DNA of 45,623 bases, filler included, from Sphacelaria rigidula (taxonomy: Eukaryota), in assembly GCA_964200075.2 (NCBI GenBank). It is 2 parts of 2 records of this genome, joined end to end, with 100 filler letters (N's around TTAATTAATTAA, not from the genome) between each part and the next. Parts side by side here need not be neighbours in the genome. Positions count along the whole stretch, not along the records: positions 1 to 22,764 come from CAXNAA020000311.1; 1 more part is not named here. One strand, written 5' to 3'. The notes beneath the pieces were generated by a model. The model saw only the letters and a list, made by a program, of their open reading frames with translations, was not told where the DNA came from and searched no databases. Each line of letters begins with the position of its first letter. Positions within the stretch are counted from its first letter, which is position 1. Positions 366-43,573 of this stretch are shown here, piece by piece. A program made the translations under genes and the position numbers.

Positions 366-1099
366 TTGGAAGAGGTGGATAATGCATGACATAAACGTCA
401 AGAACTACTGCACCCATGAAACAAACACCTTACCGATGACCGATCACATGGCCAGCGAGAGGGAGCACCAAGCGGTACGTAGACTTCTTGAGATCTTGAA
501 GAATAGAATCTGGCACAAAGTGTGGGGGAATCGTTGGCCAAGCTCTCGGCAGCGAAGATCTCCTCGGAAGCAGAGGTGGAGTAACACCCATGGCGAACCG
601 TACACAGAGTGGGAGGAAGTGATGATGTACGGGATATCCCGATGTGTGAGTAAGACCTTGTGTTATGCAAGCCGTCCTTGATCCTTACACGGTGAAAAGT
701 GACCTCCCCCGAGGAAAGTAACCAGTACAGTTGCGGGGCAAAAAGGTAAAAGATACGATCGTGGGACGCCTCGATGAGTCATCAGGCAGATTGCTTGGCA
801 CAAACATGGGGTACTTGTGTCAAGGGTGTTTGACTCCAGGCTACGAGCCCGTGTTGGAGGCATTATTTTGTGTCGGTGAGCCAGCAAAAGAACTGAAAGG
901 CACCAGACCCCCAACAAGTACTGGTATTGGGATAGCCCAGTGCCTTGACTATTACCCACCACAGTACTTGAAACGAACAAGCTGGAGGTACTCTCGAAAG
1001 AGATCGAGAGAGACGGTAAGGAAGGGTGGATGGAAACGTAGAGAGTGGACTGGTGAAGTACCACTAGTGTTGGTATTCTGAGTCCGTAGCGATATGACG

Positions 1100-3600
1100 A
1101 GAATAGAGTGTAAAAGGAAATGCAATGAAGTTGGACTTTATTGTTCGGCGGTAGGAGAAGTAAAAAGGGAGGGAGAACACTTCTGGGTCGAGCTATAACA
1201 GAGCGCGAGCAAGAAATTTGAGAGGATGCGACAAAGAAGGTGTCGGCGTGGGTTGGGAGGGTAGGATGGAGGCTATGTGTAGTCAATGGAACGGCAAACC
1301 TAAGACGTAGTCCGCGAGTACACGGAGGAAAGGAGATGCAGGAACAAATAAGTGCACGGAAGGGGAAAGGGAGGGGAAATAGCGGCCCAAAGCAAATAGA
1401 CAAAGGCCAAACCGGAAACGGGAAGAAGAATTAAGCAAGGGAAGATATAAGTATAAACGACGGAGAGAGCACAGTAGACAAAAGGAGAATGGATAGTGAA
1501 GAACACGAATGCGTAGAGATGCTGAAGTAACAGCGAGATGAAGGCGGGGAACGATAGAGCACAAAAATCAAAGACGCAACATACATGGACCAGACAATGC
1601 AAGGGAAAATAGTCGGGAAGCTCCACTCTTGACTATGTAGTGGTAGAATATGGATATAGTAAGGAAATTAATGTGCATGGATGCGCAGAGGACGTGGAAA
1701 CTACAGATCATTGCTTATTTTGGACAGCCCACAGACAAGAGCCATAAGAAACAGGCGGGGTAGGAAGTTGTACAAATGGAGAATAGATGAACTAGAGATA
1801 CAAGAAAAACACCAAGAGTTCCAAGAATAGGTCTTAAAAAATGTGGTGAAAATTCTCCGAATTGTAGGAGAGCGTAGGTACAGTGAATACCGAAATGGAA
1901 AGATATCGCGCAGGAGCGAAGATTGTATAAGGGTGAGAGATTTTGGTCAAGGTCACGACAAGCAAAGCCATAAGACACTAATCGTACGCAAGAGAGCAGT
2001 AAAATGGCGGGATAAGGAAGTAAAACAGGCTTCAAGAGTATGGAGAGAGGCACACGCAAGATATATGTATATACATATATATCGAGTACAACTATCGTAG
2101 GGTTGGAGGAGTATATGAAAGCTAGAAAAGAGGTAAAAAAGATGGTGGAGAAGAAAAAGAAGGGAATATAGGAAGGTTTAGTGAATCTAAAAATGAAGAT
2201 TTTGATGGCGGGATGACGCAAATGGGGCTAGAGATAAAAGGGATCATGGGAATTTTCCGAAGTGTTGGGGGAGGGATTGATTACCATGGTGGTAATGCTG
2301 TACAACTAGATACGTGAAAACGAGTACACACCCAAGAGATGGAGAGAAGGAGCGGTAGTCAATCTTTTTTAGATTGGAGACAAGGCTGACCCAGGGAATC
2401 ATAGAGGGATAACGCTACTGTCCACCGCGGGAAAAACGCTCTATAAGATTCTGAATGATAAGGTGGAACGATGCTTGAGAAGGAAGGAAAAATCGGCGAA
2501 GGGCAAGCAAGTTTTAGACCAAACCGTAGTTGCGTAGACTATGAGTACACAGTAGGTAAGCTTATTCAAGGTAGGAAAGACGCCGGGCTAACAACATACA
2601 GTTTTTTTCTAGACGTACAAGAGGCCTATAACTCAGTATGGAGACATGGGCTGTGGAAAAACTTGTAGGAAACAGGGACAGGGGTAAAATGTGGAGAACG
2701 GTGACGAAGATGATGTAATGTGCCAAAAGTGCCATGAATCTAGACGCGGGCATATCGAAATATTTCGATATCTTACAAGAAGTTGCACAAGAATGTACGC
2801 TATCACCCACTTTATTCAAAGTGTTTATTAATGTCCTGACAACAGCAATAGAAACAGCAAAGCAAGGAGACAAGGTGGTGTACTCAGGAGACAAGGTGGG
2901 GGAAAATACGGTATCGAGAATGATGTTCGCGGATGCTTTCGTGGGGATATCAGAAACACCAGAAGGATTGCAGAAGCAATTAGAGAAGGCGCTAAAATAC
3001 AGTAGGGAATGGAGAGTGACAGCAAACGTAAACAAATGCGGGGTACCTTTATGTATCGGAGGGTTCAGATGGAAGTGGGGAGAAGAGAAATTGCCGGTCG
3101 TGGACTAGTATATATACCTTGGCGTAGAGATGCAAAACAACAGTCCTTGGGATACATACATGGAGAAAGTAAAAGAAAAGACTGAAGCACAGATAAGCAA
3201 GATGGACGTGATCCTACGAGGTTCGCACCTGGATGAATATGGAAGAAAGTGACGAAAGGGCAGGCTGGAGTAAGGTGGGATGGGGTAGTCGAAAAAATAT
3301 GGGAGGGGATAGGAGGAAACAAAGACGAGATAATGTCCATGCGTGAATGCTGCAGGTACAAGACAAGAGTAACAGACATGATAGAAATAAGTGCAAAGGA
3401 AGCGCTAGGACGGAAAGTAGACGAGGAGAAGCACCTGCAGATATACGGGGGCTGAGGGAGGGGATAAGGATGAAAGCATATATGCATGGCCCAATGGACT
3501 CCGCGGGAAAAATTGAAACTGCGATTCCGGATGGGAAACCTGGACCTTACAGAAAAAAGGAAGAGGTATACCAGCAGTCGACTGGAGAAGAAAATATATG
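1100..3600 (+). mobile_element. Degenerate LINE ORF2 (AP endonuclease + reverse transcriptase) with many stops and frameshifts
   Basis: Endonuclease C-terminal motif STLDYVVV...TTDHCL at ~1620-1720. RT motifs GDKADPGNHRGITLLST (~2375-2430), GQASFRPNRSCVD...FFLDVQEAYNSVWRHGLW (2471-2668), QECTLSPTLFKVFIN...MFADAFVG (2734-3108) and Y.YLG at ~3110. The 5' boundary is approximate. Confidence 0.9.
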
Positions 3601-4097
3601 CACTAAAATAGCTTGCACGTATGTCGTGGGTTCGAGTCCTGTGTTATTAATAGTCAGATATTTCCAGTAGTTCCAATTTCCTACAGTGTGAAGGTGTGAG
3701 TGAGCAATATAAAGGGTATAGACGGGAGTGGAGGAGCTGCGGGAGTGCTGATCTGATATGCGATAGTAATATCTTCAGCGAAGCACGTTAGCTGGGGACA
3801 GATGGGGTGGTTTCTTAATATTAGATTGTGAAATGGTCCTGCCAAAGCGTGGGGAAGGGTTAAAATGATGACGGAATATGAAGAAGTACAGGAATTCATG
3901 TGAAGAACACAATTAACAACTTGTGCACTTGTAAAAGATGTTGTCGGGTGTTGCTGTTCTCTTCATTGTATCCTCGTTGTTGTGGATTGTGTCCTTTCAG
4001 TCACATCTTGTGTCATCCATTCCCTTGTTTTCCATTATCATTTTATCTCTACTTTTCTCTCTGTTTCTCCTCCACTTTTGTTGTTTACCCCAAACAG

Positions 4098-4312
4098 CTG
4101 ACTCCAAGATAAACGTTCCATCGGGATCGAAGACAGTCAAGATGTACAAGGCCATCGAAAACGTTAACACTGCACTCACGGCCGCCGAGGCAGCAGGGCT
4201 TCGAGTGGTGAACATCGGAGCTGCCGACATCATCAATGGCAGGCCGGCCAGCATTCTGGGGCTGTCGTGGCAGCTCATTCGGGTACACATACGGACACAG
4301 ATGGAGCTCAAG
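4098..4312 (+). pseudogene. FIM: Fimbrin/plastin exon, calponin-homology CH1 domain; probably part of a decaying gene copy
   Basis: The translation ..KAIENVNTALTAAEAAGLRVVNIGAADIINGRPASILGLSWQLIRVH..ELK matches the fimbrin CH1 signature ENxNLALNSAKAIGCxVVNIGAxDLxEGxPHLILGLxWQII. Pyrimidine tract + CAG acceptor at 4095-4097 and GT donor at 4313. Phase 1 to phase 0. Confidence 0.85.
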
Positions 4313-4885
4313 GTATATGCAAACATGTTTCGATCAACCAGCATGAAAGAGTGCTGCAAAACGTTGACAGCTGACTGTCTTGTGCCGTAATGCACCCTAC
4401 ATCGCCCCCTCGCAGGACAATTTGTTGTTTCCTTTTGTTCCGTACATTGACCGATACAAGGACGTAAAGCTACTTGTCATGCCTGAGGGTACTGCATCTT
4501 GTGGGTGTTACTTTACTCTTCCATTCCTTTTTCCCAGACCATACGGAAGTAAGATCATACCCAACTGTCATACTCTTTATTCACCTGGAACCATTTATTT
4601 CCTAGCTGGCCGCGACAATCAACTTCATAATTCAACCAATTTGAAATGTTTGCGCCAACACTTTTGGTGAGCTTGTCGAGGTGTACTTGGGGCTTGGTCA
4701 CAGTGGCTTGAAACTAGGGCAGAAAAGTTCCGAGAATGACGGGGTAAGGAGTTACCATGAACGATTGGATCATGTCTCCCTCAAGTACAAGAATAATGTC
4801 GCATTACACCAACAAGCAAGCAGAGTTGAAGTCCACACGTAAAGACGCAACACCAACGTCACCACGTCCCGTTTTGATGACCGGG

Positions 4886-4912
4886 ATGTATCATGTATCA
4901 TGTATCATGTAT
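4886..4912. repeat. (TGTATCA)n short tandem repeat, possibly a retroelement 3' tail
   Basis: atgtatcatgtatcatgtatcatgtat is directly visible. Confidence 0.8.
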
Positions 4913-6764
4913 GCTGCCGATCATCCCACGTGAGCCCTAGACACTGTCACCAGTAGCCTGTCGCGCTCTATGTGTGCTCTCGAGGTTGCCTGTTCTGGCG
5001 TATTTCCACAAATGCTGCGTTTCTAGTACAGTATACACCTGTGCGTGTCATTTCGGTCAAGTAAACGAAGCGAAGAGCCGCGGTATTCGGGTGGTCTGCT
5101 GTAGTGTATAACCGATATAATAAGTAGAGCATACTGAAACCAAGAGATCTTTGATAACAACTGCACGATTCTCAAGCTCGTACATCCCTCGCGGAAACGT
5201 GGGGTAACAGGTTATGCTGAAAGCGATAGCGGTGGATATGTAGAGTCTCCTGAAATTATAGCCCAAAGGTACACAGGAGCGTAGGTTGTTGCCAGGCATC
5301 TTCTCACCAAAATGGTTGAAAAAAATAGGCGGTTTTTCAACACTAATACAAGGGTACACGATATATATATATATGTACATATACCTTCTTCATCTATGTA
5401 CCTAGTTTCTAATGTTGGACCTCTCAGGGAGGGGGGGGGGGGTACCAGACCATCATGCCCCTTCCCCCCTCAACGCTACACCGACTCCTATATGAACCGA
5501 TCCTATACATCCTGTACGAAATGGGGGTGGCGTCGGAGGGGGGCCATCCCCCCTGATGAGCGCGGTATACTCGTGATCTTGCATGCCATAGTCATGAAAC
5601 CATTGATATCGCATCTTTACAAAGCCGGGACGGAGCACGCCGGATTTTCGCCGGACCAGACTCGCAATCAATTACCAGGCTAAAGGCACCATGATGTTCT
5701 CGGCAAGTCGCATGAAGGGTGAGCTGCATCCTGATAAAATTGTTTCGGCCCGAAGCCTACTACAGAAAATGGCTTGCATGTCAAGGACAGCCTCGAATTA
5801 GTTGCTTCATTTTCTGGTATCCCCACTTCCAGGGATAGTCATGGCTTACACCGCCTCCTGGGTGTCACCATTTGAACGCTACGCAGTACGATCATCTCCG
5901 TTGCGCGGAGGTGACGTTCTGTACCTCGCGCAATATCATCTCGCTCGACCACCATCATGGTCAATGCAAACAGAAGCACAAGCGAGGAAAAAAACAGTAG
6001 CCTGGTTGCCTAGCTTACGCATTGGGTGGCATGTTTCACACCGTCGTTGCCAACCAGCGCCAACCCTCAAAAGGGGGCCCTCCGGTGGGGGTAAGAAACA
6101 TGGCGGTGCGGCAAACATATTTCTTCGTGCACCCTTGACCAATAACGAAGGGAAACGAGGAATACCCCGAGAACGCGAGGTGAGCGTATCCAATCGACTG
6201 TTGTTGCCCACCACGTTACCCTACGACCGCTGTTTCGGTTGTTGAGGCAAATAGATCCCAGAAGTGCAACCCGCTCCGTTGTCATGGGCGCAGCTGTTCC
6301 GTTGAGAGGTGTGAAGTTCAATTTTTTGGAGTGTAAATCCGAAACCGCCAGCGGTAGCTATTAGAATTGTATGTCTCGTGAAAGGAGCACATGATACTCA
6401 CATGTGATTGCTCGATTGCTGGGGTTCGAAGCAAAAAGCACGCTACAATATCTCGCTTTGACAAAAAAAGTATATGATGTGTTGGTTTTCGTTCGTTTTT
6501 TTATCACACTTTGAACCCCTCCCCTTCCTCGGGTGAGTCCATGGTCACAAGGGATCAAGTCAACCCATCTCTCCCCCGGTACGTTCCTTATATTTTGGTA
6601 TCGCGGATTGAATCATGACCATCAGGACTCTCCCATCGTGCTGACTGTCGTCTAACATACTCAGTCAAACATATATATATATACATATATATATTTCTCC
6701 TCAAGTCCTGACGCTTTCAACAAGGGAAGTACGATATCTGTACAAAAAGTCCAAATTGAATGTA

Positions 6765-6845
6765 TCTGGTGCGAATCGAATCCACATTCTTTCTGGCCTA
6801 ACGGTAATGGTATACATTGTGCCATTAGAGCACCGGGGCGCGGCG
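6765..6845 (-). mobile_element. tRNA-derived SINE head
   Basis: Minus strand CGCCGCGCCCCGGTGCTCTAATGG...GGATTCGATTC has A-box/B-box-like motifs and resembles the heads at 20250 and 24546. Confidence 0.55.
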
Positions 6846-6924
6846 GCATCGCATATGTATATATTTCGTTTGTGCCCTATCTCTGAATCTCCATGCTATT
6901 CTGCCCTTGTTGTTGCTCTTGCTT

Positions 6925-6995
<71 letters not shown>
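6925..6995. repeat. (GTT)~23 microsatellite followed by short (CTTCTG)n
   Basis: Directly visible. It explains the poly-V/C/L/N ORFs in the track. Confidence 0.97.
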
Positions 6996-7053
6996 CTCCT
7001 GCTTCTGCTTCTGCTTCCGCTTCTGCTTCCCATCGATCGAAAACAATCTTCAG

Positions 7054-7170
7054 GTGGCCTCCGGACAGGTCGGTGTGACCTCCGATTGCATGGCCAACCT
7101 GGACCCGATCCAGTCTAAGATAGCACAGGGCGCTCGGCCAACAGAGGGTGACGAGCTGCCTGGTTCCAAG
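7054..7170 (+). pseudogene. GLT1: Glutamate synthase (NADH-GOGAT-type, FMN-binding domain) exon relic 1
   Basis: [39 protein letters not shown] vs the conserved VASGRFGVTxxYLxNADxxQIKMAQGAKPGEGGELPGxK. CAG acceptor and GTGAGG donor, 117 bp, phase 0-0. Several invariant residues are substituted. Confidence 0.9.
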
Positions 7171-7314
7171 GTGAGGGTATTCGTTGTCTCAAGGTACTTT
7201 TTCGAAGTCATATTTTGGTCTCTATTATTCGAATGAGGTCGAATTGGGGTGACGACTTTGATCAACTGCGACGTGTGTCAAGTATCTTTTGTTTGTCTTA
7301 TGACCAGGATGTAA

Positions 7315-7606
7315 CAGTGTTTTCGTGAAATTGAGAATAGAGGATGCGATTGAGTGTGAAAAGCGGTGAATTAGTGAATGAATCGTTTCAATTCCGAAAT
7401 GCCCCTCCACTAGGCCCAATGTGCTTTCTGTAGTAGCTTGCCACTGAGGCCCTTAATACCCCTGAGTAGGATATCGGCGTGTAGCCGTGAGCTCACGCAA
7501 ATGATAGAGGCAAAGAAAAGCACACACGGAATGAACATTGGCTAAGTTAAAGCGAGGGATCAAAGCCACTCTCAATCAGCGCTCTACTCTCAATCTCACG
7601 AAAATG
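7315..7606. mobile_element. MITE with degenerate TIRs, same TIR family as the 29487-44409 element
   Basis: CAGTGTTTTCGTGAAATTGAG.. at 7315 and the inverted ..CTCTCAATCTCACGAAAA at ~7587-7604. No clear TSD. Confidence 0.65.
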
Positions 7607-7869
7607 TTTTTCTGTGTGGCTCGAAAGTTCATGAAATCAGACTGCTGTGCAGGACGGTTGTTTTTGCGAGAAATGCTGTTACCTCTGTACATGCAGTGCT
7701 CGCATGCATCACACATCTACCTCGTACGTTCAATCTTGGATCTGTCTCCCAGATGGCCCCGGATTACGTACATCACGTAGAAACATCATATATGTTTCTG
7801 TCGATATGAACCCGAAAGCTATCGCGATGCCGCTCGTACGTGAATGTACCCTCAATTGTCTCACGACAG

Positions 7870-8124
7870 GTGACCACGCACATGGCCGAGAATAGGCACA
7901 CCACACCCGGCGTGGGGCTCATCTCGCTTCCGCCCAACCATGACACTCACTCCATCGTGGACTCGACCCAGCTCATCCACGAACTGAGGAACGCCAACCC
8001 TAACAGGGAGGTGTCCGTGAAGCCGGTGTTCGAGGTTGGGGTGGGTGTCATGGCTGCTGGTGTGGCAAAGGCGAAGGCCGTTCACATGACGGTGTCTGGA
8101 CATGACGGCGGGACCGGAGCGGCG
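7870..8124 (+). pseudogene. GLT1: Glutamate synthase (FMN-binding domain) exon relic 2
   Basis: [44 protein letters not shown]...[29 protein letters not shown] vs the conserved [36 protein letters not shown]...[22 protein letters not shown] acceptor and GTGAGT donor, 255 bp, phase 0-0. It continues relic 1 directly. Confidence 0.92.
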
Positions 8125-8740
8125 GTGAGTGTTCATGCTTGTCTGTTCGTTTTGCATTTTTACTCCGATTTGTCTGTCCTTCTGGAAAGTCAAAGAAGGA
8201 TGTTTGAATTCTCATAGAGTAGGTAGCTTAGTTTTGAGGCGTTTTATGTTTTGGTTTTCGTTGATCTTTCGTCTTGTTTCGTTTTATGACGTGAACAAGA
8301 GCGCCGTACGTTACGTTTGGAAGTGAGTACTTGGTTAGTTTCTCCTTCTTCATCACCATCCCCTTCTTATTATTGTTGATGTCTGCGGCGATGTCGTGAA
8401 CGTAAGCAGCAAGTGAAACGGAGCGGGTACACACATCACCGGTACGAGAGCAGGTAGACAGACTACGGTGTCTCGCGGACGACGGGAGAACGGGCGACGG
8501 GCGACGGGGTTGAAAGCATAGCGCTGTGTGGCTCGTCCGAGAAGCCCATGGTTTATACACGTGATGTGATCGCTGCATTGTTGGGATCCGAAACAAACGC
8601 GAAAAAGTAAAATAAATCGTTGTACGTGATGTCATCGGCCAGGGTAGGAGTACATACCGAGAGACGAGAACACGGGTACTGCAGCAACACGAACGAATGT
8701 ATCCCCTTTTGTTTCCCTTGTCCTGCGTGTGTCGTGTCAG

Positions 8741-8847
8741 CCATGTCCGAGCCCGATCAACCTGTCGGGGGATGACAAATCAAGGGCGAAGTCCTTCGCG
8801 CTTCCTGTAGAGGATGTGTTTCCGCGCTGGTTCAACAACCACATCAG
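8741..8847 (+). pseudogene. FIM: Fimbrin exon (CH1-CH2 linker and start of CH2), degenerate
   Basis: PCPSPINLSGDDKSRAKSFALPVEDVFPRWFNNHIR vs fimbrin xxPELxxLLxxxExxEELxxLPPExILLRWxNYHL. CAG acceptor in phase 0 (matches the donor at 4313) and GT donor in phase 2. Confidence 0.75.
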
Positions 8848-9321
8848 GTATTGTAACATTGCGCATATTTTCAACTTGAACTCCTCGGGCGCTATGGTGC
8901 AAATGTGGATCCCCTCAGATGGATCCATCTATTCGGACCGCGGAAATATTTGGAAAACCATTGCTTTATTTGTTTTATCATCCCCCTCCCCCCCCCCCTC
9001 CCCTCCCCTCGCGCCCATCTGAATAACCCCCCGGGTTGCGCGTGTTTGGCAATTTCTGGTTGTTAGTATATAGGCATCTGTAGTGCTGTGACGGCGTACT
9101 TTGTACATCAGCCCCCCTTGGATGTCACTTCCTGGTGAGGAGATAAGGTGCCCAACACCTTCATCACCTGGGGCTGTGTACACCGTATTCTACTGGAAGA
9201 GTTCTTTGTAAGACATGTCTCGGTTGTACTGTGTAGCACCTTGCCTCTTCACCCCAAGCACGCGGTGTTCCAAGCCCGTCGACCCGACGTCCAGCCGGCG
9301 ACCTGGACGCTCAAAGGGTGA

Positions 9322-9699
9322 TTGTTTACACCGGACAACTACAACTAATAACTATTTCCGTGCAAACAAGTAGTCGTACTCCGTCAGGAACCGTTACAAC
9401 TAGTTGCGAGCAAAAGAGTATTCGGTCAGGGATTTTTTCAACTAATTGTTTGCAAACATTTACTCGATTAGAAGCCCGTACAAGGAGTTGTTTGCAAATA
9501 TTACTCGTTCAGATACCCGTACAACTAGTTGTCTTCAGGCAATTTCTCCGTCACAAATCTGTACAACTGGTTGCGTGCCAACAACTATTCTGTCAGAAAC
9601 CTGTACAACAAGTTATCGAGCATCCAAGTACGTCGAAATACTACTAATAGTTGTGACGAGCAACGACTCAGTTATTAGTTGTTCGGGGTGTGTAAACAA
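9322..9699. mobile_element. MITE-like element with TIRs and internal ACAACTAGTT repeats
   Basis: TTGTTTACAC..ACAACTAATAACT at the left end and AGTTATTAGTTGT..GTGTAAACAA at the right end are reverse complements. Repeated CGTACAACTAGTTG-like motifs lie inside. Confidence 0.7.
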
Positions 9700-9853
9700 A
9701 ATGCGGCAGCCGAAAAAAAAGCGATGATGCTTGCTCGATCTATCGTGTGTCCGGGAACAAGACATTGTCTGAGTTGTTTCTATAAAGTAGGGGTTCGACC
9801 CGAACTATTACTATACTCGTCCTAGAGCTCATGATGACTAACGACGTTTCCGT

Positions 9854-10061
9854 CGATCTCAAGCGCCTCCATCGCGTGAACCCGTCTTGAGCGGCTTTCA
9901 CCATCTCTGTACGCCCAGAGCGCTAAGCGAAGACGCCATTTTGCCCCCTTTCGGTGTTACGAGCTAAGCAGCAGAGGTCGCTTTCGCTCAGCGCTGTGCC
10001 CCTTAAGAGCTGGTGAAAGCCGCTGAAGAAGCGTCCACGCGATCGAGGAGCATTATGATCG
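9854..10061. ncRNA. Long imperfect hairpin, candidate intronic miRNA precursor
   Basis: Arm 9854-~9936 pairs with ~9979-10061 (e.g. AGCGGCTTTCACCA / TGGTGAAAGCCGCT; ATCGCGTG / CACGCGAT). The mismatches are scattered and mostly 1x1. No expression evidence is available. Confidence 0.5.
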
Positions 10062-10243
10062 CAAGTATGCCACCGGCTGCACTTAGCTTCAGGTTACGGA
10101 AAGCGCTGATGTGAAGTTGAACCTCATTTTGGGGGGAGTGTCTTCCCACGTGCGTGCATCTGTTCTTTTCAACGGTACCTTTCTTGGGTTGTCAAATTGT
10201 GATCGTGTGCGTACCTGTTTCCCTGTTGGTGTGCGTATCACAG

Positions 10244-10293
10244 GTGGGGAGCGAGCGAGCGGAGAGTATCGAACCTCTCGGAAGACCTGTCGG
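10244..10293 (+). pseudogene. FIM: Fimbrin CH2 mini-exon
   Basis: The phase-2 start joins the 8847 donor to give ..NHIR-WGASERRVSNLSEDLS, matching fimbrin AGxxRRVxNFSxDxKD. CAG acceptor at 10241-10243 and GT at 10294. Confidence 0.6.
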
Positions 10294-11436
10294 GTGGTTG
10301 CTGCTCCACCATCCTCTTGAAGGTACGACCGAGAGTCAATTGTACCTTTTTGGTGTCATGTTGGAGGCAAAGTCTCGACTTCATTGTCCGCGCCCACGTG
10401 AAAGTGCATGTGCTCGCTAAGACAACTGAAGGTGCAGTCTGGTCTTCGTTGTCCCCTTTTGACATCACGTGCAGTCCCCATTGAGTTGCTCAGTGGCCCT
10501 CATTAAGGTGCCGTTCAGAATGCTGAGTACAGGTTCGCGTCATGTGTAGTACAGTGCGGTAAGGTAGAATCTAGCGTGTACTTTCTACCGTGCCTAGCGT
10601 CCACCCACCATGAAGGCAGTCTAGGGTTGGATATACATCTTTATGCCGCCAACTGTACTGCACAGTACTGTTTTGGTTGTGCTCTCCTCAAGTTGCTTCA
10701 TGTCCCTCCCTCACACACGCACACTCTACAGCTATGTTTATCTGGTTGACGATGCTGAAGCGAGGCGGGTACCATATTCAGCCGTTCAGTCGTACCGCGG
10801 AGATGCATCATGTATCTTGGCCACCCTGTCCACTGCACATCGATTTCATGTACCCCATGTGGCACATATGCCGCAGCAAAACAATAGCTCAGGTCACCGT
10901 GCATTTGACCGGTACGTTGTATATCACCCCTTCGCTTCCTTTGAAGAATATTTCCGGTCGATAAAGTTTCGGCCATTTTTGGTGGCATTCAGCACCTACC
11001 GTACCGTACTCAGGTACGTTGTTTATCGCCCCCTAGCTCTGACTATCACCCCCGTTTGATGAGTGTTCCGTCCTCAATTCTTAGTCACCCGAGGGCTGCA
11101 CACACAACCTACGGCACTTTGAATCCAAGCGGGACGGTTGTTCGAATGCCCAATCGCGTTCGTCATCACGGTACACAAGAAGTACAGAGCAGGAGGGTAT
11201 GTGTATACCCTCTTTATGATTCATGCCATCATATTGACTCGCAAACCGTTGGTTACGGCGTTCTGGGTAAGACGGTTTAGGAGCAATAAGTTATCACCCG
11301 GGGGTGGTTATTTTGGCAGGAATGGTATTCTACATACCCTGGTACAGTACCGTAGTGCTGGTAAGGTGCTGAACATAGCCGAGACGTATTGCCCCGGAGT
11401 TGTTATCCGGGCGGGCGGGCGGGTGGGCGGGGGGGG

Positions 11437-11523
11437 GTACGCATTCGTTGTTTGCTTTAGTCGTTTGACCATTGACCATGCATCACTTTCGAGACAGAGC
11501 ACCGTTCCTACTCCTAATAGAGA
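11437..11523 (-). mobile_element. LINE extreme 3' end fragment
   Basis: Same motif as 77-160 and 26341-26425, with G-rich tracts on both sides. Confidence 0.75.
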
Positions 11524-13668
11524 GGGGAAGGGGCAGGGGGGCACATGTCCTACGCACGGATCTCGAACACCCCATTGTGGACTACCCTGTCGGAGCTGAA
11601 TATCCGGTGAAGTCTCTGTTGCGCGTCCTGCCTCCTCTCCTGTCTATGTTCCTTCGAGAACAGTGCTTTCTATTGTAGAAAAATCACATACCGGCGCTTC
11701 GGCGACGAGGTTCGCCCGAAAAGGTCGGGGAGCAGATCGTGCCCACTCGGACAGACTAGCCGTAATCTCCGAGAGGATTCCAGCGCATCTACTCGACTTC
11801 TCACCTCCCCAGTTCAGCTTTTCGCCTGGTCAAGCGATGTTTCCCGCAGAACAGGAATGGTAGCATTTCTGTGGGCTTCTCTGACGTTTTGCCGGTTGAA
11901 CAAGCTCTTACACAAACCAAGAACGATAGCGTTTCTGTGAGCTTCCCCAAGGATTCCGGAAAAGCTGGAAGTTTTTTTTTTCATTTTGTATTGTCGTAGC
12001 GCTTGACATGCGCAGCTCATTCGCGAGTGCTACCCCCTCCGTCTCCACAAGGTTTGGCATACTAAACCGCACATATCGCGCGCACATGAGCTGGATCGCG
12101 CTGTACGCGCTATCTGTATTGTACTGATCAGTTTGTAGTGACTGTGTAAAGTACAAATCACATCACGAGGGCAACCAGCATCGTCTGGAGGCAGGACTAG
12201 GTCCGAGCAGCATGAGATTCAGCATGAACAATGGTGCCCACACAAGAGTACACCGTACCCTTCATCGCGTGCGATGGCGTTGCTATGTTGCAAGCGATCC
12301 GTGCTCTCTTGCTGTCCCCATCTTTTTCTCAATGCATATGTTCCTTCCTACCGGTGTATGCAAGGGCACTTTGGTGCCTCGCTTCCCCAGGGTCGATGGA
12401 TGCGAGAAACACACCCGTAAGAGTGAGGTCGTAGTCGATGACCCACAATCGGTTTCCACGTCTTTCGTTTTTCTACGATTGATTGGGTGTTAGTGTAGCT
12501 TCGGCGGAAGACCTTTTCCACCGATCCATGTGACGGAGGTCGATCACTTCTAGTTTTCTTTCCTTTTTTTTCTCTTCATTTCTCAGTCTAGTGTATTTGT
12601 CTGTTGTACCTTTTCTGTGTTTTTTCACTTGTCCTCAGCGAGTGTTTAACTTTTGCTCTGTCCCGGATACGTCGATCATATAGTGTGGATAATGACCACG
12701 ACTAGATCCCTGTAGGAACAGCTAAGTGCGGCAATGAATCGATCCATCTATCAATCGATCATAGCGTTTGCGTTCATTTTTCATGGTAAAATGTCAGCAT
12801 AATCTAACGCAATTGTCAGGCCCCTTCTGCCTCTCACCGCATACCGCGTTTTCCACCTGAAAACAGTTTAAACGGAACCCCGATGCCGAGATGGGAAAAC
12901 GCTTTGATAGCACTTATCGGGGAGTACGGTGCGTAACCTTGGGGGTTTGTCTTTCTCTGTGCTTTTCAACCTCCTGAGTTGCAGTATTTGAAAGGAGCTC
13001 GGCGGACAGGCGAACATAGCTTTTTACAGACTGATACTGTATGTCTTGAGAACAGAGTAGTGTTCACCGAGTGGTTTTCGGTAGAGCAAATCCAAGCCCA
13101 TTCGGATACTGCAAGGCATTCATCGCCATAGATCGATTGCTGTCGACTGGCACCACTGCACTTTTGCCCGGTCGCAAGTTGTACTACTGAAACGCTTTCG
13201 CAACAAGACAGGGCCTAAATCATGGCAATATTGGCATCTTAGATCGTTTTGTGAGGGGGCGGGGTGATAAGGTCATAGTAGTACCGTATGTATGGCTTGT
13301 GCGAGAAGCTGACGAGTCATGTCGTACACATACTTGCTGTCTCGTTCAAATTTGGGATTGGTAACAAAGTAGTCTGCTTGAAATATTTGGCACAGGACTA
13401 CAACGACGAGAGCCAGACCAGAACAGCAACGTGAAGGGCTGGAAGCAGCCACCGATCGACACACTATTGTACCACATAATATCCTCCCCTACCCTCCTCC
13501 CTCCGCGCGCCGAAAAAAACGACCGAATCAGAAAACGGCAAATTCTCGTATTTGTCCCGTGAGTTATGATCTGCGATTCCCGTAGTTATCGGGTTTTGAC
13601 TTTTCATATTTGTTTATCCACACTCTTTCCCCCTTGTGATTTCGTTCCTGAATGATTGATGGCCCCAG

Positions 13669-16600
13669 GCGGGGTACCGCACGCTGAGAAGACGGCGAGG
13701 ATCGGCATCTAGTATAAAGCACAGGCGAGTCTGGGCCGCTTTCAATACTCGAATATGTCGACAGAGGACGCTGATGAAACGACAAGAGCAGGCGTGGCGA
13801 AGGGAAGTCCGAGGGAGAGACGCGGCTGGTGCTGTCAGGTAGGGATGCTCCCAAGGCATGAACAAGGGAGCGTACTGGTACGGTATCTAGTGTCTCATCG
13901 TGCCGATAATTGCCACCGATATCGCCGCATCAACGATATTGGCTATGAAACACCAGTGTTGCGCCTGGGTAATATTCACGTTTTTTACCACCCTTGGCAG
14001 ACCGATAGAGCGCTAAATCTCCCATATGTTGCCCTTCAACTATAGTCCGTGGCCATGGCTACCGTCTGCGAGAGCTCTGGCTCGATTTTACCTATCGCAG
14101 CGCACAAACTAGCGATCGATATGTCTCAACCGTTGCCAAAAAAGATACCGGTACCAAAGTGTGCAATCGCGTTGGTCCATTTCCGCAAGCCTCACAAGTA
14201 TACCGCCCGTACGGTACATGCTGCTATTCGCGTATCACCCGTAAATCATGAACCAGAAGACGTGTCATGCACCCTGTACCGTTTTATTTTTTCAATCATC
14301 AGTCAGCGTAAATGTTTACGTTTTATTTCTTCAGTCATGTATTGACATATACGTACCTGGATCATTGACGTTAAGTGAAGAATAAGACCGGAAACGCAAA
14401 AAAAAAACAGGAAAGCAAGGAGACTGGCGGAAAGGGTGTGTGCCCGAGAAACAGGTCGGCAAGCACAAAGACCGGCTGCGACGAGGCTGCGAGCATGGCG
14501 AAGGGGAGTGGTGACCCGGACGGCGTTGGTTGCTGCGGTAACGGTGAGGGGGCTGGCCTCTTTGCGGGGTAGGAGGCGTTTGCGTGAGGTGAGCACACCT
14601 CGTTATGTCCACCATAACTTTCAGAGTTATTTATGTTCACATAGAGTCTTGGGGAGTTTGGTTGGTGTTGGTATCATCGTTCTTATTCCAAGGTGACTGC
14701 GCTGGAGAGAGCTATCATGCAAGGCAGGCGGGAGTTGGAAGAAAAGCAAAGCTCGGTGGAGATCGACGGGCTGCGGTGTTCCAATGCTTGAAAGTTGTTG
14801 GTGGTTAGTGGTCAGGCGGGTACCGGGGGGAGAAGGGCTGGTTGGTTGCTCGAGGCGACGGACTGGTCCCGACGAGAACAGAGAAGAGGAGCAGAGGGCG
14901 GGGGTTGTAAGTATGGCGAAGAGAACGAGTTAATAGAAAACCGAGAAGTACCGATCATATATATGCATGACCATGTCCTGACCTTTTCTGCGATGTTCTC
15001 TTCGCTTGGCTTCACTCTACTCCCTTTTGTGGTTGTTCATCTCTGCTGCTATTTTCAATTTTCGATCATGGCGTGTTGCTGCCATTTCCCACTGTGTCAA
15101 CGTTTCGGTCGCCCATGTTCTCTTCCCTGGACATGTGCTTGCATTGTCTTTGTGCGTGTGATTTCGTTTGCTCACCGCGTCTTGTTTATTATACTTTGCT
15201 TTTCGCTTTTGGGCGTGCTTGCGTGCCGTGTGTCTGTGTGTCTGTGTGTATCTTATGCAGGATGCTCGTCAATCTGAGCTACCGTTCCTATGCCGCCAAT
15301 TTGACCAGATAGATCATCAACACGTCCGGGGATTCCTGTCGCACTCCGTAGTCACCTCTTCCACATCCTTATCGACGTCACGAGCAATGGCTGATCATTC
15401 GCCGGAGTGTATCGGACCGGGAGTTTGGCCTGCCTCGGACTCGAAGAGCGGGGCCGGTTTTGGAAGCAGTGACGACGGGCACGGATGGTCTTCAGTAACA
15501 AGGTACGTCAAAGAGTATCGGTCACGATGTCGATCAGATCAGTTTTACTGCGTCACGGTATCTTGCCTCACGGTACGTAGACGTTCGTCTTATGGAAAAG
15601 GATGAGTGTTTGGTGTGTGCGTGGGTCATTTTTTCGCACTTCATCCGTGAACGGATCAATCAATAGTTTTCACGGATGGTCATTTGTAGCAAGTCAGTTC
15701 GAGGAACGTCGGTCACGATGTCCACCCGCTACACTACGGTACGGTACCTGCGTCGCGTTACTTTACGTTACGGTACGTTACACTGCGTGGACAGTTGTCG
15801 CCTTAAGAAGTGCCAAGCGTTGTTTTCTTGCCTAGATGTTTTCGTGGAAGAATGAACGAATGAATAGTCAACATGTTGAGTCATTGTCCATTGTGTCACG
15901 AGAGTATCGTCATACTCCGAGGAGAGGCATAGCGCACGAGCGCTGTCCATGTGCTGACGTCTCACCCGTGCTAACCTGTGCTTCACGCGAGAACGAACGA
16001 ACAAACACATAACCTCGCCCCAGCGGGTCACCCGTGTGACCCCCCAGGCCACCACAAGCACGCCTTGGGGGTGGTAGGGGTAGTGACAGTGGACAATAGT
16101 TATACAACACAGTTCTTGTGAACGATATTACCCCAATCATTTTATCTTTTGCTTGCTCGCCACTGTTGCACAAGAACAGCTCAGCCGAAGCAGTGTCCAT
16201 CAAGTATCGGAGACCGCGGATGAGGGAAGGGCAGAGGGAACGCGCCAAGTTTGCGAATGAAGTCTTGCGTCTGAGACGCGCCGCATGCACCGTGTACAAA
16301 GCTGACGAGAGCGTTTGGCGCTCAAAGCTGGCAACGAGGAGCAAGGTCAGGTTAGGAAGGAGCTGGCCGCGAAGGAGGAGGTGTGTTTGTACATTGTACG
16401 TTGTAGTGAAGCATCTTCTCCCTGCCCTGCATCTATCGTATTTTTTCAGATTGTTGTGAGCATCTTTAATGATGTCACATATCCCCCCCACCCTACCTTT
16501 CCAAGGCTCCGCACCCACCCCCCCCTGCCCCCCCCCCCCCCTCCCCCACTACTCCCCTTGTGCCCCCTGCGGTTAACCCCTTCGACCAATTGTCCGTTCG

Positions 16601-21454: not shown

Positions 21455-22716
21455 AACCGAGCTTGGGATTTGCTTTCGCCCTGTGTGTCATACCTGATAT
21501 ATCACCCATGGTATGCCTAGTGGCAGGGGAAATCTGCGCAGGACGAAGGTGGGAAAAGGGGAGGGCTTGTACGTGAATGCAGTCGTGCTTGGGATTTACT
21601 TTAGCCCTGGGTGTTGTACTACGTATACTACGTATATCACCTACGGTATGCCTCGTGGCAGGGGAGATCGGTGTAGGAGGAGGGTGGAAAGGGGGGAGGG
21701 CTTGTGTGTGAATGCAGTCGAGCTTGGGATTTATGCTCGATTGGGTATGAACGAGGGGGGCACGGCTTGTATGGAATGGTGTTGAGTTCGAGATTTCATG
21801 CAACCCTTCATGGTGCGTATGTGTGGGAGGAAGGGCGAGGGACGGACAGAGCTTGCTTGTGGGTGAAGTTGAGGTTGGAAGCTCTTGTCGCCGTCGGTGG
21901 TATACGTGTGGGAGTGGGGGGCGATGAGTGAGTGGGCTCGCTTGTGGAGCAAGTCGAGTTCGGGATTTGATGTCGCCCTCGACGGTGTACTCCGTAGATC
22001 ACCTGTGGTATGGCTTGTGATTGGTTGTTTCTCCGTAGGAATGGACGGGAGCCGGGGGTGGAGAGCTTGCCCGTTGATTTGGTCGATGTTGAGGTTCGTT
22101 GTCGCCTGGGGTGGTGCACGCGTGGGAGTGGGGGCGGAGAAGCGGCAGGACTTGTCTTGGATGGCCGCGCGTGAGAGAAGGGGCGGTAATAGGGAGCACG
22201 GCTTGTATGGAATGGAGTTGAGTTTGAGATTTGATGCAACCCTTAATGGTGTGTATGCATGGGAAGAAGGGCAGGAAAGGGACAGGGCTTGCCTGTGGGT
22301 TCAGTTGAGTTTGGGGGCCTATGTCGCCGTCGGTGGTATACTTGAGGGAGTGGGGGCCAGTAAGCGAAACGGCTTGCTTGTGGAGCAAGCTAATTTCGGC
22401 ACTCGATATCGCCCTGGATGATGTACTCCCTAGACCACCTGTAGTATGGCTCGCAGTAGGCGGTTTCTCCGTAGGAATAGGCGAGAACTGGGGGTGGAGG
22501 GCTTGACTATGGGCTAGGCAGATAGTGTGGTTCGTTGTCGCCCGGGGTGGTATACGCGTGGGAGTGGAGGCGGAGAAGCGACAGGAATTGTCGTCTTGGA
22601 TGGTCGCGCGTGAGAGAAGGGGCAGAAAGAGGGGGGCACGGCTTGTATGGAATGATGTTGAGTTCGAGATTTCATGCAACCCTTCATGGTGTGTATGTGT
22701 GGGAGGAAGGGCGAGG
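21455..22716. repeat. G-rich higher-order tandem repeat (minisatellite)
   Basis: GCACGGCTTGTATGGAATG recurs at 21760, 22196 and 22636 (period 436/440). GTCGCC..GGTGGT..GTGGGAGTGG recurs every ~215-220 bp. Related ~130-bp units lie at 21461, 21587 and 21722. Confidence 0.9.
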
Positions 22717-22722
22717 GGGGGG

Positions 22723-22764
22723 CGTACTCATTTGTTGCTTGCCTTAGTCATTTGACCATTGACC
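22723..22764 (-). mobile_element. LINE 3' end joined to a G-run of the minisatellite and cut by the assembly gap
   Basis: cgtactcatttgttgcttgccttagtcatttgaccattgacc is the exact reverse complement of 26048-26089. Confidence 0.85.
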
Positions 22765-26021: not shown

Positions 26022-26089
26022 AGTGCTCCGTCTCGAAAGGGATGCGTGGTCAATGGTCAAATGACTAAGGCAAGCAACAAATGAGTACG
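26022..26089 (+). mobile_element. 68-bp LINE 3' end insertion with a 19-bp target-site duplication
   Basis: CCCCCCCACAAGAAGAATG occurs at both 26003-26021 and 26090-26108, flanking the LINE terminus ...GCAAGCAACAAATGAGTACG. Confidence 0.9.
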
Positions 26090-26340
26090 CCCCCCCACAA
26101 GAAGAATGTTTACGCCCCACAAGAAAAATGTTTGGTCTGAGGCGGCAAAATCCACATGATAGCTAAAATGACAAGAGCCGAGCATATCGAGCAGCTGGGA
26201 ACTCCCGTGCTTGGGGATCGTTTTCGCCAATGTCGCACATATAACGGGCTTCAGGAGTCTAAAACCAGCTATCATGCGTTTATGGCCATTTTCTTCGCGA
26301 CAGTTTTGAAGCTGGTTTTGGGGGGGGCGGGGGCCGGGGG

Positions 26341-26625
26341 GTACTCATTTGTTGCTTGCCTTGGTCGTTTGGCCATCGACCATGCATCTCTTTCGAGACG
26401 GAGCACCGTCCCTACTCCTGATAGAGATGCTTCCGACATTTCGGCCCTCACAACGTTTTTTTCCATACATTACACAAAAACCGCTCACATATCTTATCCC
26501 CGTCCTGTTTCGCCGTCTGTGGCCACCATCTATCTCCTAGTAAAACCATCGTTTTTTCGTTACTGTCTAATGCATCAAATGATTTCATGCCACCTTAGTT
26601 CGCGTCCCGTATTTCCCCACCCCTA
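26341..26625 (-). mobile_element. LINE 3' fragment
   Basis: Colinear similarity to 77-340, preceded on + by a G-rich tract. Confidence 0.75.
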
Positions 26626-31683: not shown

Positions 31684-32431
31684 TGTCAGGAGACGAACTT
31701 GCGCTCAGATCTCCGACAAGGGTTGGACCACTGTTATGGGGCTGAGGTGGTGCGATTCGTAGAAACGTGTAGAGTCCCAAAAAGTTGTCGAAATGTGATT
31801 TGTTGCCACTTGTATTGATTATTTATGCTACGATACTGGAAGGCCCCAGAAATCAACACAAAACCAATCTATACCCGGAAAACAGACCGAAACTTGACCT
31901 AAAACTGCAGAACAAAGCTGTTGCTGAGACTGAGAGAAGGATGCAGAACGAAGTGATCATCAGGGGGTTTGCGTCGATGCTCGAGTGCACCCCGCTAGCC
32001 TTTGACCCTTTTGTTCTTGCTCACGCACTTGAACCCAAATCTGTGACTTTACCTTTCAAAGAATCGTTCTACTCGGGAGTACCCCCACAGGTTTTCATCC
32101 TTTATCTACCCTCAACACACAAGAGCTCCCAATATCGTATCTTGCTTTGTTGTATTTTCTGAGATAAACTCCAGATTCCGAAACGTGCAAATCCGTCTAC
32201 AAGTTTTCTTGACTTTTGAACAACTCAACTTCGAATATATCTCCCCGCTTGTGTACAAACCTCAACTTGTGGCTCACAATGCCTAGAAACACTATAGCAC
32301 AATTCCTGTACCCCGGACTAGAGCTATTATAAGTTGTTTTACCCCGGTTCCCATACGCACTCATCTTACTTTTACCCGTAGAACTGGTTCGGCACGAAAC
32401 CATGAAGCCTCCGAGAGTTTGGCTCACCACA
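31684..32431 (-). repeat. 3' LTR (748 bp, TG...CA)
   Basis: Direct repeat of 43574-44336. Manual alignment gives about 25 substitutions and 3 indels. Confidence 0.95.
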
Positions 32432-32894
32432 TTAGCCCATTCTGTGAACCTAAATTTCATCTTATGTGCAGATAAATTTGGTGAACAAACTACTGTAAAC
32501 CGCAAAAACCCTGGTGAGCCTCAATATTTCCACTCGATATTCAAACTAACCACCCCCAATTCTTGAACCTGGAAGAGAAAACTCCAAGACAAATTGCAAC
32601 ATCTATTAGTTTACAACACTTTCCACACATACTACTCCACAAATCGGCTCTCTTCCTTGTAAATTCTGCCTGTGTTCGACCCACACAATTATTTCAACAG
32701 TCAAATCCAAAGTAAAACGGAGAAAAACATTCAAACTAAGATCAGAAAAATACCCAAAATATTTCATCGTTCTCCTGGCTCCTTCTGGTCCTCGTTGTCA
32801 TGTACCGATACCAAACCACCCCCAATCATCCACGTCTTCTGATGTTCGTCTTCATATGCGATGATGGTTGATGGGCTCCAACAATCCTCTCCAG

Positions 32895-33733
32895 CTACAA
32901 TGTGTGTGCGAAAATCTTCGATGTCCCTTGCTGCACATGAACATGCCAGCACCAATCCCTTGCTTGGTTCCTAGAGGTCTTCAAATTTCCCGCCAAATGG
33001 TGGACATTGTACCGCCTTCCCAGGTCCAGCATCCTCAGGGTATGCGGGCGACTTTGCAGCGCTGCATTTTCCTGAAGTCCCATTTTTGAGCTAGCTGCCA
33101 CCCTGCTTTCTGCATACAGAAATAAACGTAGCATCCAACAAGTTGCGGATCGTAAACGTGAGGGCCATCATTGACGTTGCCCCTGAGTTCGTAACCTTTA
33201 GCCACAAACATTTTCCCTCGCCCCCTCGCCTCCTCCCGTCGTACCAAGTTAATACGATACCTGCGATACTTTGCGTTGTCGGGCTTTTCTATCTTCGGAT
33301 TTCCCATCCAGTATGTTAAAATCACACGACCCTATTGTTTGACGTCCTCTTCATGTTCCCATCTCGGCCTTCCCAAATTTTCCCAATATAGTAAGTATTG
33401 TACAGACAGCTTCCCCCCCAAACCGCGAGATAAACGAGGGCTCACGATTTTTGTGGGTTTCAACCTGTACTTGTCTAACTGCACTGACAAATCCTCCTCT
33501 GCCAGGTGTAACGGTGGTGACAGTTCTGAGTACTGGTTTAACACGTATTCACTCAGGCCCCAAGGTAACGATTTAGGCGGCTCCGGCTCATCTTTTGAAT
33601 TGTAGCACCGCTTACATCGCAACACCGAAACTCGAGGACTCATAATTACTCCCGCCTCATTTTGCCGAAGTTCGAGCAAGAGTAATTTTTCCCCTACTAG
33701 CTCTCCCTTTTTCGAAATGCCTGGTCCTACCAC
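32895..33733 (-). pseudogene. Integrase C-terminal region: chromodomain-like segment plus a further ~150-aa extension
   Basis: GGKLSVQYLLYWENLGRPRWEHEEDV (chromo-like Y.V.W....WE), then ILTYW..NAKYRRYR..GYEL..GCYVYF..GWQLA..RMLD..WCWHVH across a stop and a frameshift. Confidence 0.7.
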
Positions 33734-34780: not shown

Positions 34781-35008
34781 GTTGGCTCTTCTCCCAAATA
34801 CCCCTCAAACTGTCCCGGATTTCGGTCCATTTGACTGGGCATTGGAGTCTGCGTCTTCCCCAATAGAAAGCTTTCGCCCGCCAGTTCTAAAAGTGTTCCA
34901 TTTTTCAACAATCTTTTGAACTCGCATAAGTCAATTCGTGTGGGGACACCCTTCTCCTGATCTTTCGTCAACACCGTCACTCGTTTTTTCAAATATTCGA
35001 TGACAGTC

Positions 35009-36058: not shown

Positions 36059-36073
36059 TTCCTTGGCTATAGT

Positions 36074-37559: not shown

Positions 37560-37930
37560 TCCTTGCAGGGTTATGACTATTTCTCGTTGGTTTACATCAC
37601 GATATGTTCTGACCGGGAATAATCCGAGGCCATCACGTCCTACTAAAACGTTATAGTTCATTGTTCCATCAGTACTACATGAGCGTAAATTGCTAAACAT
37701 GCTTGGCCGGTTTGAACTGACATTTTGGGGTTGGGTCTTCTATGCCACAGTCGAATATTCAACCGCACCTGTGAAGAAGTACACAACGGGACACCATTGA
37801 AACCACCCCAGGATACAGGGTCTATCTCCCGAGTACCTTAGATGGTAGCCGCCCCGACATCAACCATTTTTTTCCATATTTTATGATGAATAATTATCGC
37901 GGGACTCCCCGTGTCTATCAAAGCTTTTAT
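37560..37930 (-). pseudogene. Gypsy aspartic protease
   Basis: The minus strand at 37898-37924 reads ALIDTGSPA, and VLVGRD follows at ~37630-37650. Interrupted by stops and frameshifts. Confidence 0.8.
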
Positions 37931-40584: not shown

Positions 40585-40593
40585 CCCAATTTG

Positions 40594-43572: not shown

Positions 43573-43573
43573 G

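Follow-up and report, generated by a model that had tools for sequence, protein, structure and literature searches.

The question raised by this locus of Sphacelaria rigidula is how two exons of a glutamate synthase come to lie within an intron of a gene for an actin-binding protein, and if they are spliced into its mRNA. The window, which is the whole stretch of DNA that was analysed, has a length of 45.6 kb. In the initial annotation a fimbrin CH1 exon (here exon A), two glutamate synthase exons (G1 and G2) and two further fimbrin exons (B and C) were proposed to splice to one open frame, in which 124 aa of glutamate synthase are placed between the CH1 and CH2 exons. This frame is open as described. 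Together with two additional exons, D and E, the series A+G1+G2+B+C+D+E amounts to 373 open codons, and A+B+C+D+E to 249. AG acceptors and GT donors are found on all seven exons.

G1 (7054..7170, plus strand) comprises 39 codons and matches positions 119-162 of the PF01645 profile (E 1.4e-10) as well as, by tblastn, residues 1010-1054 of P0004. G2 (7870..8124, plus strand) comprises 85 codons and matches profile positions 157-246 (E 1e-22). Both matches are above the gathering score of PF01645, and both exons are phase 0-0, located on the same strand, stop-free and bordered by canonical splice sites, as was annotated before. Together they represent 124 aa of the FMN domain of glutamate synthase, corresponding to residues ~1010-1135 of five full-length ferredoxin-type enzymes with 56-77% identity (70-77% for G2). 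G2 is present as a single copy in the DNA run X4 (depth 31). Only positions 119-246 of the 369 profile positions are covered at the locus, and a complete enzyme with full FMN, amidotransferase, central and GXGXG domains is not encoded there. Using the five full-length enzymes as queries, no further glutamate synthase pieces could be identified in the 45.6-kb window.

The host exons are arranged around these two. Exon A (4098..4312, plus strand) encodes the C-terminal half of a fimbrin-type CH1 domain (Pfam CH, E 8.8e-9), which is 61-67% identical to P0130 and P0136; the preceding half of CH1 is not contained in the window. The phase 0 end of this exon at 4312 proved correct. Its start has to be read differently, as the two bases from 4098 belong to a split codon: the frame-1 translation contains stops, and the frame beginning at 4100 is open for 71 codons. 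Exon B (8741..8847, plus strand) encodes the CH1-CH2 linker and the start of CH2 (tblastn to P0130 residues 230-276), and exon C (10244..10322, plus strand) the N-terminal part of CH2 (tblastn to P0130 residues 269-301, 58%). The end of exon C, originally placed at 10293, was corrected to 10322 according to the spliced contigs and the splice sites. The joined A+B+C product aligns to P0130 residues 169-301 without a gap (60% identity, E 3e-55). B and C therefore resume exactly where A stops, as had been claimed, and the position of the insert coincides exactly with an ancestral exon junction. In P0130 and P0136 the sequence continues directly from A to B, with no insert. Likewise, glutamate synthase was found in none of 26 more distant fimbrin loci from metagenomes; the search for close relatives of exon A in metagenomes revealed distant fimbrins only (39-56% identity).

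The two additional exons are known from the spliced contigs. Exon D (13669..13838, plus strand) encodes a basic IQ-like region with a weak match to P0130 residues 385-445, and exon E (14411..14588, plus strand) an IQ-like tail, which matches P0130 residues 462-524 (E 5e-6). The assignment of the host to fimbrin may hold for its actin-binding domain, since its relative P0130 is clearly similar to ABD1 of the Arabidopsis fimbrin 1pxy (E 4e-64). However, its nearest relatives of full length (P0130 and P0136) contain two CH stretches each and not the four CH domains in two tandem actin-binding domains of fimbrin/plastin, and P0130 also contains an IQ motif. The host is probably an actin-binding/IQ protein with a domain of the fimbrin type rather than a classical four-CH fimbrin.

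Of the two CH domains, the copy in the window encodes the last part of CH1 and the first part of CH2. As exon D is directly joined to exon C, the C-terminal half of CH2 is missing from the mRNA, and a profile search of the window based on eight relatives gave for this half a best hit of E 2.2 on the wrong strand. The stretch 12369-12422 weakly resembles the CH1 stretch that precedes exon A, which is not significant (E 29-36). Exon A is present in ~4-5 copies of at least 90% identity in the DNA run X4 (depth 177 vs ~33-40), and the host copy belongs to a group of several paralogues. Because of these paralogues and the lost half of CH2, the locus as a whole is most likely a duplicate that is expressed and degenerating. 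It is not obviously a pseudogene, given the gapless A+B+C alignment to P0130.

G1 and G2 appear to be present in the mature transcript. The runs considered here (X6-X9) are only presumed to be RNA, none of them being on record as such, and the evidence consists of assembled contigs. In contigs of three of these putative-RNA runs (X6-X8) G1, G2, B, C, D and E are joined at GT-AG sites with 0 mismatches. The clearest example is X8 record 22 (2625 nt, depth 13.4), which covers 7052-7168, 7868-8123, 8740-8844, 13667-13835 and 14408-14589 without a mismatch. X7 record 16 enters G2 at 7967 and is listed on the G2, B, D and E stretches. For X6 record 12 the listed stretches are G2, D and E, and its record arithmetic is consistent with G1, B and C. 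G1 is thereby covered by X8 record 22, and its presence in X6 record 12 is indicated by this arithmetic together with the bin depth. Each of the three spliced contigs contains 80 bases outside the listed stretches that exon C would account for, and for G1 and C (the latter in bin 10207-10577) the bin depths match the contig depths exactly. The predicted junction 8124>8741 is seen with 0 mismatches as a direct join of G2 and B in X7 record 16 and X8 record 22. This junction is unbroken in the contigs, while single-base bubbles are left unresolved elsewhere, which argues against an abundant skipping isoform. Inclusion of G1 and G2 is apparently constitutive in the three runs. Coverage by putative RNA is not continuous along the locus, with a depth of ~0 in 4642-5383 and uncovered sequence also in 14659-15000.

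The intron that separates the captured exons (7171..7869, plus strand) has 699 nt and is skipped in the spliced contigs. A MITE-like element (7320-7604) whose inverted ends have 23 nt is located within it, and the repeat depth is very high in bin 7239-7609. In P0282, a bona fide glutamate synthase ORF of another genome, an intron read-through ends at the G1|G2 position. Since the fragment has retained an internal intron at the same phase-0 position as in P0282, it presumably arrived as DNA, and the view that it is not a retrocopy, which had been put forward earlier, is supported. A retrocopy, which would be intron-less, does not agree with the splitting of the fragment by this phase-0 intron common to P0282. 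The intron between exon A and G1 (4313..7053, plus strand) contains high-copy repeats at ~5384-6867, followed by a (TTG)n/(CTGCTT)n tract that occupies 6895-7034 and reaches to 20 nt from the G1 acceptor. Neither inverted or direct repeats bounding the fragment nor a target-site duplication were found around it. Transposon capture of the Pack-MULE, Helitron or CACTA kind was also considered and rejected, there being no bounding repeats and only one copy of G2 in X4.

Taken together, the locus is probably best explained by an expressed exon capture at the DNA level, in which glutamate synthase exons are spliced in frame as a tolerated, dead spacer into a degenerating paralogue. The captured piece would have consisted of two whole exons of a ferredoxin-type glutamate synthase gene together with the intervening intron and portions of the introns on either side. 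Its target may have been the phase-0 intron that separates the CH1 exon from the exon for the CH1-CH2 linker in a fimbrin-type actin-binding/IQ gene. As phase 0-0 exons with their own splice sites, both could be included by the spliceosome, and the mRNA would gain 124 in-frame codons. The insert would have no enzyme function and would serve at most as an in-frame spacer, which is probably just tolerated.

The weakest rival is an artefact, either a misassembly, a worry raised in the initial annotation, or a dead fragment left unused in an intron. Such an origin is hardly conceivable. DNA contigs of X4, which comes from an independent study, tile 4243-14539, and one of them (8017-8979) links G2 and exon B, so that a misassembly is excluded; an unused fragment is excluded as well by the joining of G1-G2 to B, C, D and E, in contigs which carry the decayed letters of G1 and G2 with 0 mismatches and not the sequence of the true enzyme. 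More has to be said about the 5' end of the transcript. Both X6 record 12 and X8 record 22 have 52 extra bases upstream of G1 and stop exactly there, although they derive from different runs. A shared stop would be compatible with contigs running into a high-copy repeat, and 5384-6867 of the preceding intron is occupied by repeats of this kind. Transcription may therefore begin at an alternative, for instance repeat-driven, start in the A-G1 intron, and a truncated G1-G2-B-C-D-E product with a leader or a new N-terminus would be made, for which G1 offers an in-frame ATG, and no CH1-GOGAT-CH2 protein would exist. We consider this unlikely. The multi-copy exon A explains the shared break point equally well, and the 52-base piece ends with AG preceded by a non-C base, as exon A does. 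Furthermore, exon A is spliced at its acceptor to upstream exons in contigs of putative RNA (X6 record 9, X8 record 20) and transcribed at a depth similar to that of the insert contigs (11-14.7 vs 13.4-19.7), the exon itself needs a downstream acceptor, and no contig joining A to B was present among the contigs listed. These observations point to an A>G1 junction and make a CH1-GOGAT-CH2 protein likely, with its translation presumed. The 52 bases could, however, belong to another exon.

A further question is if the insert is kept by selection, perhaps as a non-enzymatic module, placed between CH1 and the tail, that serves as a linker or in interactions. The insert of 372 nt contains neither a stop nor an indel in its 124 codons despite ~37-60 inferred substitutions. 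A sister fragment, P0276, which is located on another contig, of 1186 nt, is also decayed, shares seven derived states with it and is still open over 85 codons. The absence of indels and the open frame of P0276 may indicate selection on the reading frame and would then speak against a purely dead locus, and the apparently constitutive inclusion of G1 and G2 is in line with that. Other evidence opposes such a co-option. In the insert 24 of 99 near-invariant columns (at least 98% conserved) are changed, compared to a maximum of three in any of 115 true homologues. With these changes, only a partial domain and no other glutamate synthase domain, the piece is, judged by its sequence, predicted to be enzymatically dead. 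The three differences between strains that are listed for G2 all change the residue, and together with the changed columns they support the relaxed selection that was suggested initially. Exons and introns diverge alike (~1.5-2%), and the insert seems to drift like neutral sequence. The lack of stops was rejected as a sign of selection, since 39-52% of neutral simulations of the insert are stop-free as well, and CH2 is truncated. Co-option is accordingly rather improbable, and the extended version, a non-enzymatic in-frame module that is constitutively spliced, predates the split from P0276 and is selected in at least two genomes or copies, is likewise improbable. If it were true, exon shuffling would have been caught during co-option in a brown alga. 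The tolerated spacer is hence the reading that we prefer.

In classical intron-mediated exon shuffling symmetrical exons are inserted into introns of matching phase. The locus resembles this model: the two captured exons are phase 0-0, the intron around them is phase 0 and splicing causes no frameshift, the donor exons brought their own splice sites and compatible phases, and relatives of the host are free of the insert. In contrast to classical shuffling the piece is only about one third of a TIM-barrel FMN domain, is decayed and does not represent an autonomous folding module. The event is in our judgement a real and expressed case of DNA-level exon shuffling, and of an already known kind. 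To our knowledge, few cases have been documented in which an intron-bearing DNA fragment of an unrelated gene has settled in an intron and contributes in-frame exons to the mRNA of the host, and we know of still fewer outside animals and land plants. The locus combines everything that the textbook model requires (symmetrical exons, a matching phase and retained splice sites) with its usual fate, a drifting and enzymatically dead insert in a duplicate that loses domains. It thus provides a natural, still-decaying example of exon shuffling in an alga.

Chimeric genes of Drosophila formed by partial duplication at the DNA level are, in the sections of the papers considered, mostly due to tandem duplications that join gene ends (PMC5460883, PMC1463047). 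Exons of an unrelated gene are recruited as DNA into an expressed chimeric transcript in both cases, but in Sphacelaria the fragment is an internal one that lies within an intron, and the window contains no parental gene close to it. Transposons such as the soybean CACTA element Tgm-Express, Pack-MULEs and Helitrons are described, in the portions of the source used, as carriers of gene fragments which are spliced to give new combinations of exons (PMC1947982). As in these elements, a host-gene fragment has kept an intron and is spliced into a new transcript, but the Sphacelaria locus differs from them as so far described in having no bounding terminal inverted repeats or target-site duplications and in being single copy in X4.

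Composite genes that originated by domain fusion are treated for brown algae in bioRxiv 10.1101/2024.02.19.579948, the main text of which contains 0 mentions each of glutamate synthase, fimbrin and calponin. Unlike the composite genes of that text, the present one is unrecognised in the public annotation, where the locus is split and G1+G2 appear as a partial glutamate synthase protein in its own right (P0275). This exposes an annotation error, and the P0275 entry could inflate gene counts for nitrogen assimilation.

The window DNA is eukaryotic, and five exons of the host gene are located on its plus strand: exon A (4098-4312), B (8741-8847), C (10244-10322), D (13669-13838) and E (14411-14588). 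Exon A contains an open piece of 71 codons from position 4100, which matches the C-terminal half of the calponin-homology (CH) domain of Pfam (E 8.8e-9). The frame-1 translation of 4098-4312 shows stops because the first two bases are part of a split codon. Relatives of the host protein were sought by an exhaustive profile-free search, and the closest full-length ones were P0130 (524 aa) and P0136 (831 aa). Both comprise two CH stretches, and P0130 contains an IQ motif as well. Residues 113-378 of P0130 match Arabidopsis fimbrin (1pxy) over its first actin-binding domain (E 4e-64). The assignment to fimbrin in the initial annotation therefore holds for the actin-binding domain but not for a classical four-CH fimbrin; the host is a protein with a fimbrin-type actin-binding domain plus IQ. 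The joined product of exons A, B and C aligns without gaps to residues 169-301 of P0130 (60% identity, E 3e-55), so B and C indeed resume where A stops, the ancestral splice is A>B, and the captured glutamate synthase exons lie exactly within that intron. None of 26 more distant fimbrin loci from metagenomes contains glutamate synthase.

These captured exons, G1 (7054-7170) and G2 (7870-8124), are open on the plus strand. In the Pfam family Glu_synthase (PF01645), G1 matches profile positions 119-162 (E 1.4e-10) and G2 positions 157-246 (E 1e-22). They are the only matches in the 45.6-kb window to five full-length ferredoxin-type glutamate synthases used as queries. The matched part runs from about residue 1010 to 1135 of enzymes that are about 1600 residues long, with identities of 56-64% for G1 and 70-77% for G2. 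The best relatives of the insert with a named source are stramenopile glutamate synthases (brown algae, diatoms, oomycetes). AG acceptors and GT donors are found at all exons from A through E, including G1 and G2, and the frame from A through E is open over 373 codons with the insert and over 249 without it. The same-strand, stop-free exons with canonical splice sites and the open frame across the joined exons that were proposed earlier are thus confirmed. Exon C had been ended at 10293; the spliced contigs place its donor junction at 10322|13669.

Of the sequencing runs, X1-X5 are DNA-like and four small-share runs (X6-X9) were guessed to be RNA. Contigs of X6, X7, X8 and the DNA run X4 were compared with positions 3900-15000. 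Record 22 of X8 (2625 nt, depth 13.4) matches five stretches of the window (7052-7168, 7868-8123, 8740-8844, 13667-13835 and 14408-14589) with no mismatch and no gap. The 80 unlisted bases between the third and the fourth stretch agree in number with exon C together with the ambiguous splice letters, and in X6, X7 and X8 bin 10207-10577 has a depth equal to 80 times the contig depth divided by 371. Record 12 of X6 (2287 nt, depth 19.7) fits the same structure; its listed pieces are G2, D and E, while record arithmetic yields G1, B and C, and bin depth also yields G1 and C. Record 16 of X7 (2270 nt, depth 15.1) is built likewise and begins within G2. When letters common to exon ends and intron ends are allowed for, the junctions are 7170|7870, 8124|8741, 8847|10244, 10322|13669 and 13838|14411, all of them GT-AG. 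The second is one of the two junctions by which a chimeric transcript was to be recognized. The exact intron removal is the best sign that X6-X8 are RNA. An assembly chimera of two mRNAs would carry the letters of a true glutamate synthase; the spliced contigs bear the decayed letters of the window and so are not such chimeras. They also cross G2|B unbroken, while single-base bubbles elsewhere (4171) stay unresolved in the assemblies, and by this indirect evidence an exon-skipping isoform is probably rare in the X6-X8 samples.

Both contigs containing G1 extend 52 bases upstream of it, for which no position is found among the listed placements. These bases end in AG after a non-C base, as does exon A (CAAG), an ending common to many exons. 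Exon A is itself transcribed and spliced to upstream exons outside 3900-15000 (355 nt further in record 9 of X6, 165 nt in record 20 of X8), at contig depths of 11-14.7 which are similar to those of the G1-G2 contigs. Its contigs break within the exon (4213, 4275) because exon A is multi-copy: it (3900-4270) is present about 4-5 times at >=90% identity in X4, with a depth of 177 at 4171 versus about 33-40 elsewhere. At the same threshold, one copy each of exons B, C and G2 is found. At least one exon A paralogue is transcribed, as seen in an X6 contig differing 11 times over 118 nt. We consider an A>G1 splice junction likely.

A misassembly, which according to the initial annotation would remove the observation, is excluded by the X4 contigs from a second study. 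They tile 4243-14539, are broken at repeats only and show about 1-2% divergence from the window; one of them (8017-8979) covers G2, the intron and exon B. The locus is thus real and is expressed, and it probably represents exon shuffling at the DNA level, an event of a kind that is already known. Arrival as DNA had been proposed from the retained intron. It is supported by P0282, the ORF of a true glutamate synthase in another genome, which starts with non-homologous read-through ending just before 'VSEY'. This boundary is the phase-0 position of the G1|G2 intron, as expected if the intron was inherited from the parent. Transposon capture is not supported, since the repeat searches of the window found no inverted or direct repeats bounding the fragment, which is single copy in X4. 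P0276, a still open 120-aa ORF on a 1186-nt contig of another assembly, is identical to G2 at 59 of 85 residues, has 14 private changes and runs on into read-through resembling the window intron 3' of G2. Seven derived states at conserved columns are common to both, so decay of the fragment started before the two copies split.

The insert (124 aa) was compared with 115 glutamate synthase segments from the best 120 matches, five being omitted as they did not fully cover its residues. Of the 99 columns with at least 98% conservation, it departs at 24 (true homologues: maximum 3, mean 0.2), and its identity to the consensus is 71% versus 86-100% in true homologues. The insert comprises about one third of the FMN domain, and no further glutamate synthase domain lies in the window. 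It cannot act as an enzyme, in agreement with the earlier reading of its substitutions at invariant positions. The absence of stops is uninformative, because 39-52% of neutral simulations were stop-free; the lack of indels is mildly surprising, as X4 shows about 5 single-copy indels per 102 substitutions. All three listed G2 differences between window and X4 are non-synonymous (N8D, V30E, S32L; a small sample), and at two of them X4 has the family consensus residue. Exon and flanking intron diverge at similar rates in this comparison, also on a small sample.

In the host copy, exon C is spliced straight to exon D in the transcript contigs and the C-terminal half of CH2 has no match in the window (profile from 8 relatives; best E 2.2, wrong strand), thus the actin-binding domain is truncated. 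At the core glutamine of the P0130 IQ motif (LQAWVRG), the window has an arginine (LRAWRRG). The host gene seems to extend to at least 18.4 kb, as the C-terminal part of P0136 has weak colinear matches at about 16.2, 17.6 and 18.4 kb; the comparison with RNA-guessed contigs reaches to 15000. Most likely this paralogue is degenerating and tolerates the insert as an in-frame spacer; co-option of the insert by the host protein is conceivable.

The public annotation keeps G1 and G2 as a separate partial protein and has no model of the chimeric host gene: P0275 (window 7051-8115; 121 aa, 100% identical to the window), titled 'unnamed protein product, partial [Sphacelaria rigidula]', is spliced G1+G2. 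The protein search returned no protein with exon A at 100% identity. Composite genes are reported to form about 7% of the gene repertoires of brown algae in a comparative genomics study (bioRxiv 10.1101/2024.02.19.579948), in whose main text glutamate synthase, fimbrin and calponin do not occur. No description of a glutamate synthase-fimbrin-type chimera was found in the literature searched.

Several other elements are found in the window. A MITE-like element with 23-nt inverted ends (7320-7604) lies within the G1-G2 intron, and related pieces occur at 64-160, 11417-11523, 22709-22764 and 26023-26427. Such families have a very high summed depth in DNA and RNA-guessed runs and cause many false joints, e.g. 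7604>11429. Two repeats lie in the B-C intron at 9377-9615 and 9863-10051: a tandem array of about 6 copies of a 42-nt unit, and an inverted repeat of 69 nt that is 80% complementary and has a loop of 51 nt; the raised depth of the inverted-repeat bin in all runs suggests another small repeat family. The stretch 12369-12422 weakly and non-significantly resembles (E 29-36) the CH1 stretch which precedes exon A in relatives. It lies where the DNA depth is 4-7 times the usual, with some RNA cover, and could be what is left of a paralogous exon. The plus strand at about 1000-3650 is purine-rich and strongly skewed, and at 2719-3108 it matches a reverse transcriptase in decayed form (RVT_1, E 4.5e-6, below gathering score); this region, in the intron upstream of exon A, probably represents a dead non-LTR retroelement. 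The stretch 21749-22716 consists of 2.2 tandem copies of a 436-nt unit, with 81% matches. A Ty3/gypsy-type LTR retrotransposon lies on the minus strand at 31684-44335; its direct repeats (31684-32430 and 43574-44335) are 94.6% identical, and at 33.7-36.9 kb it has matches to integrase, RNase H and reverse transcriptase, which are divided among several frames.
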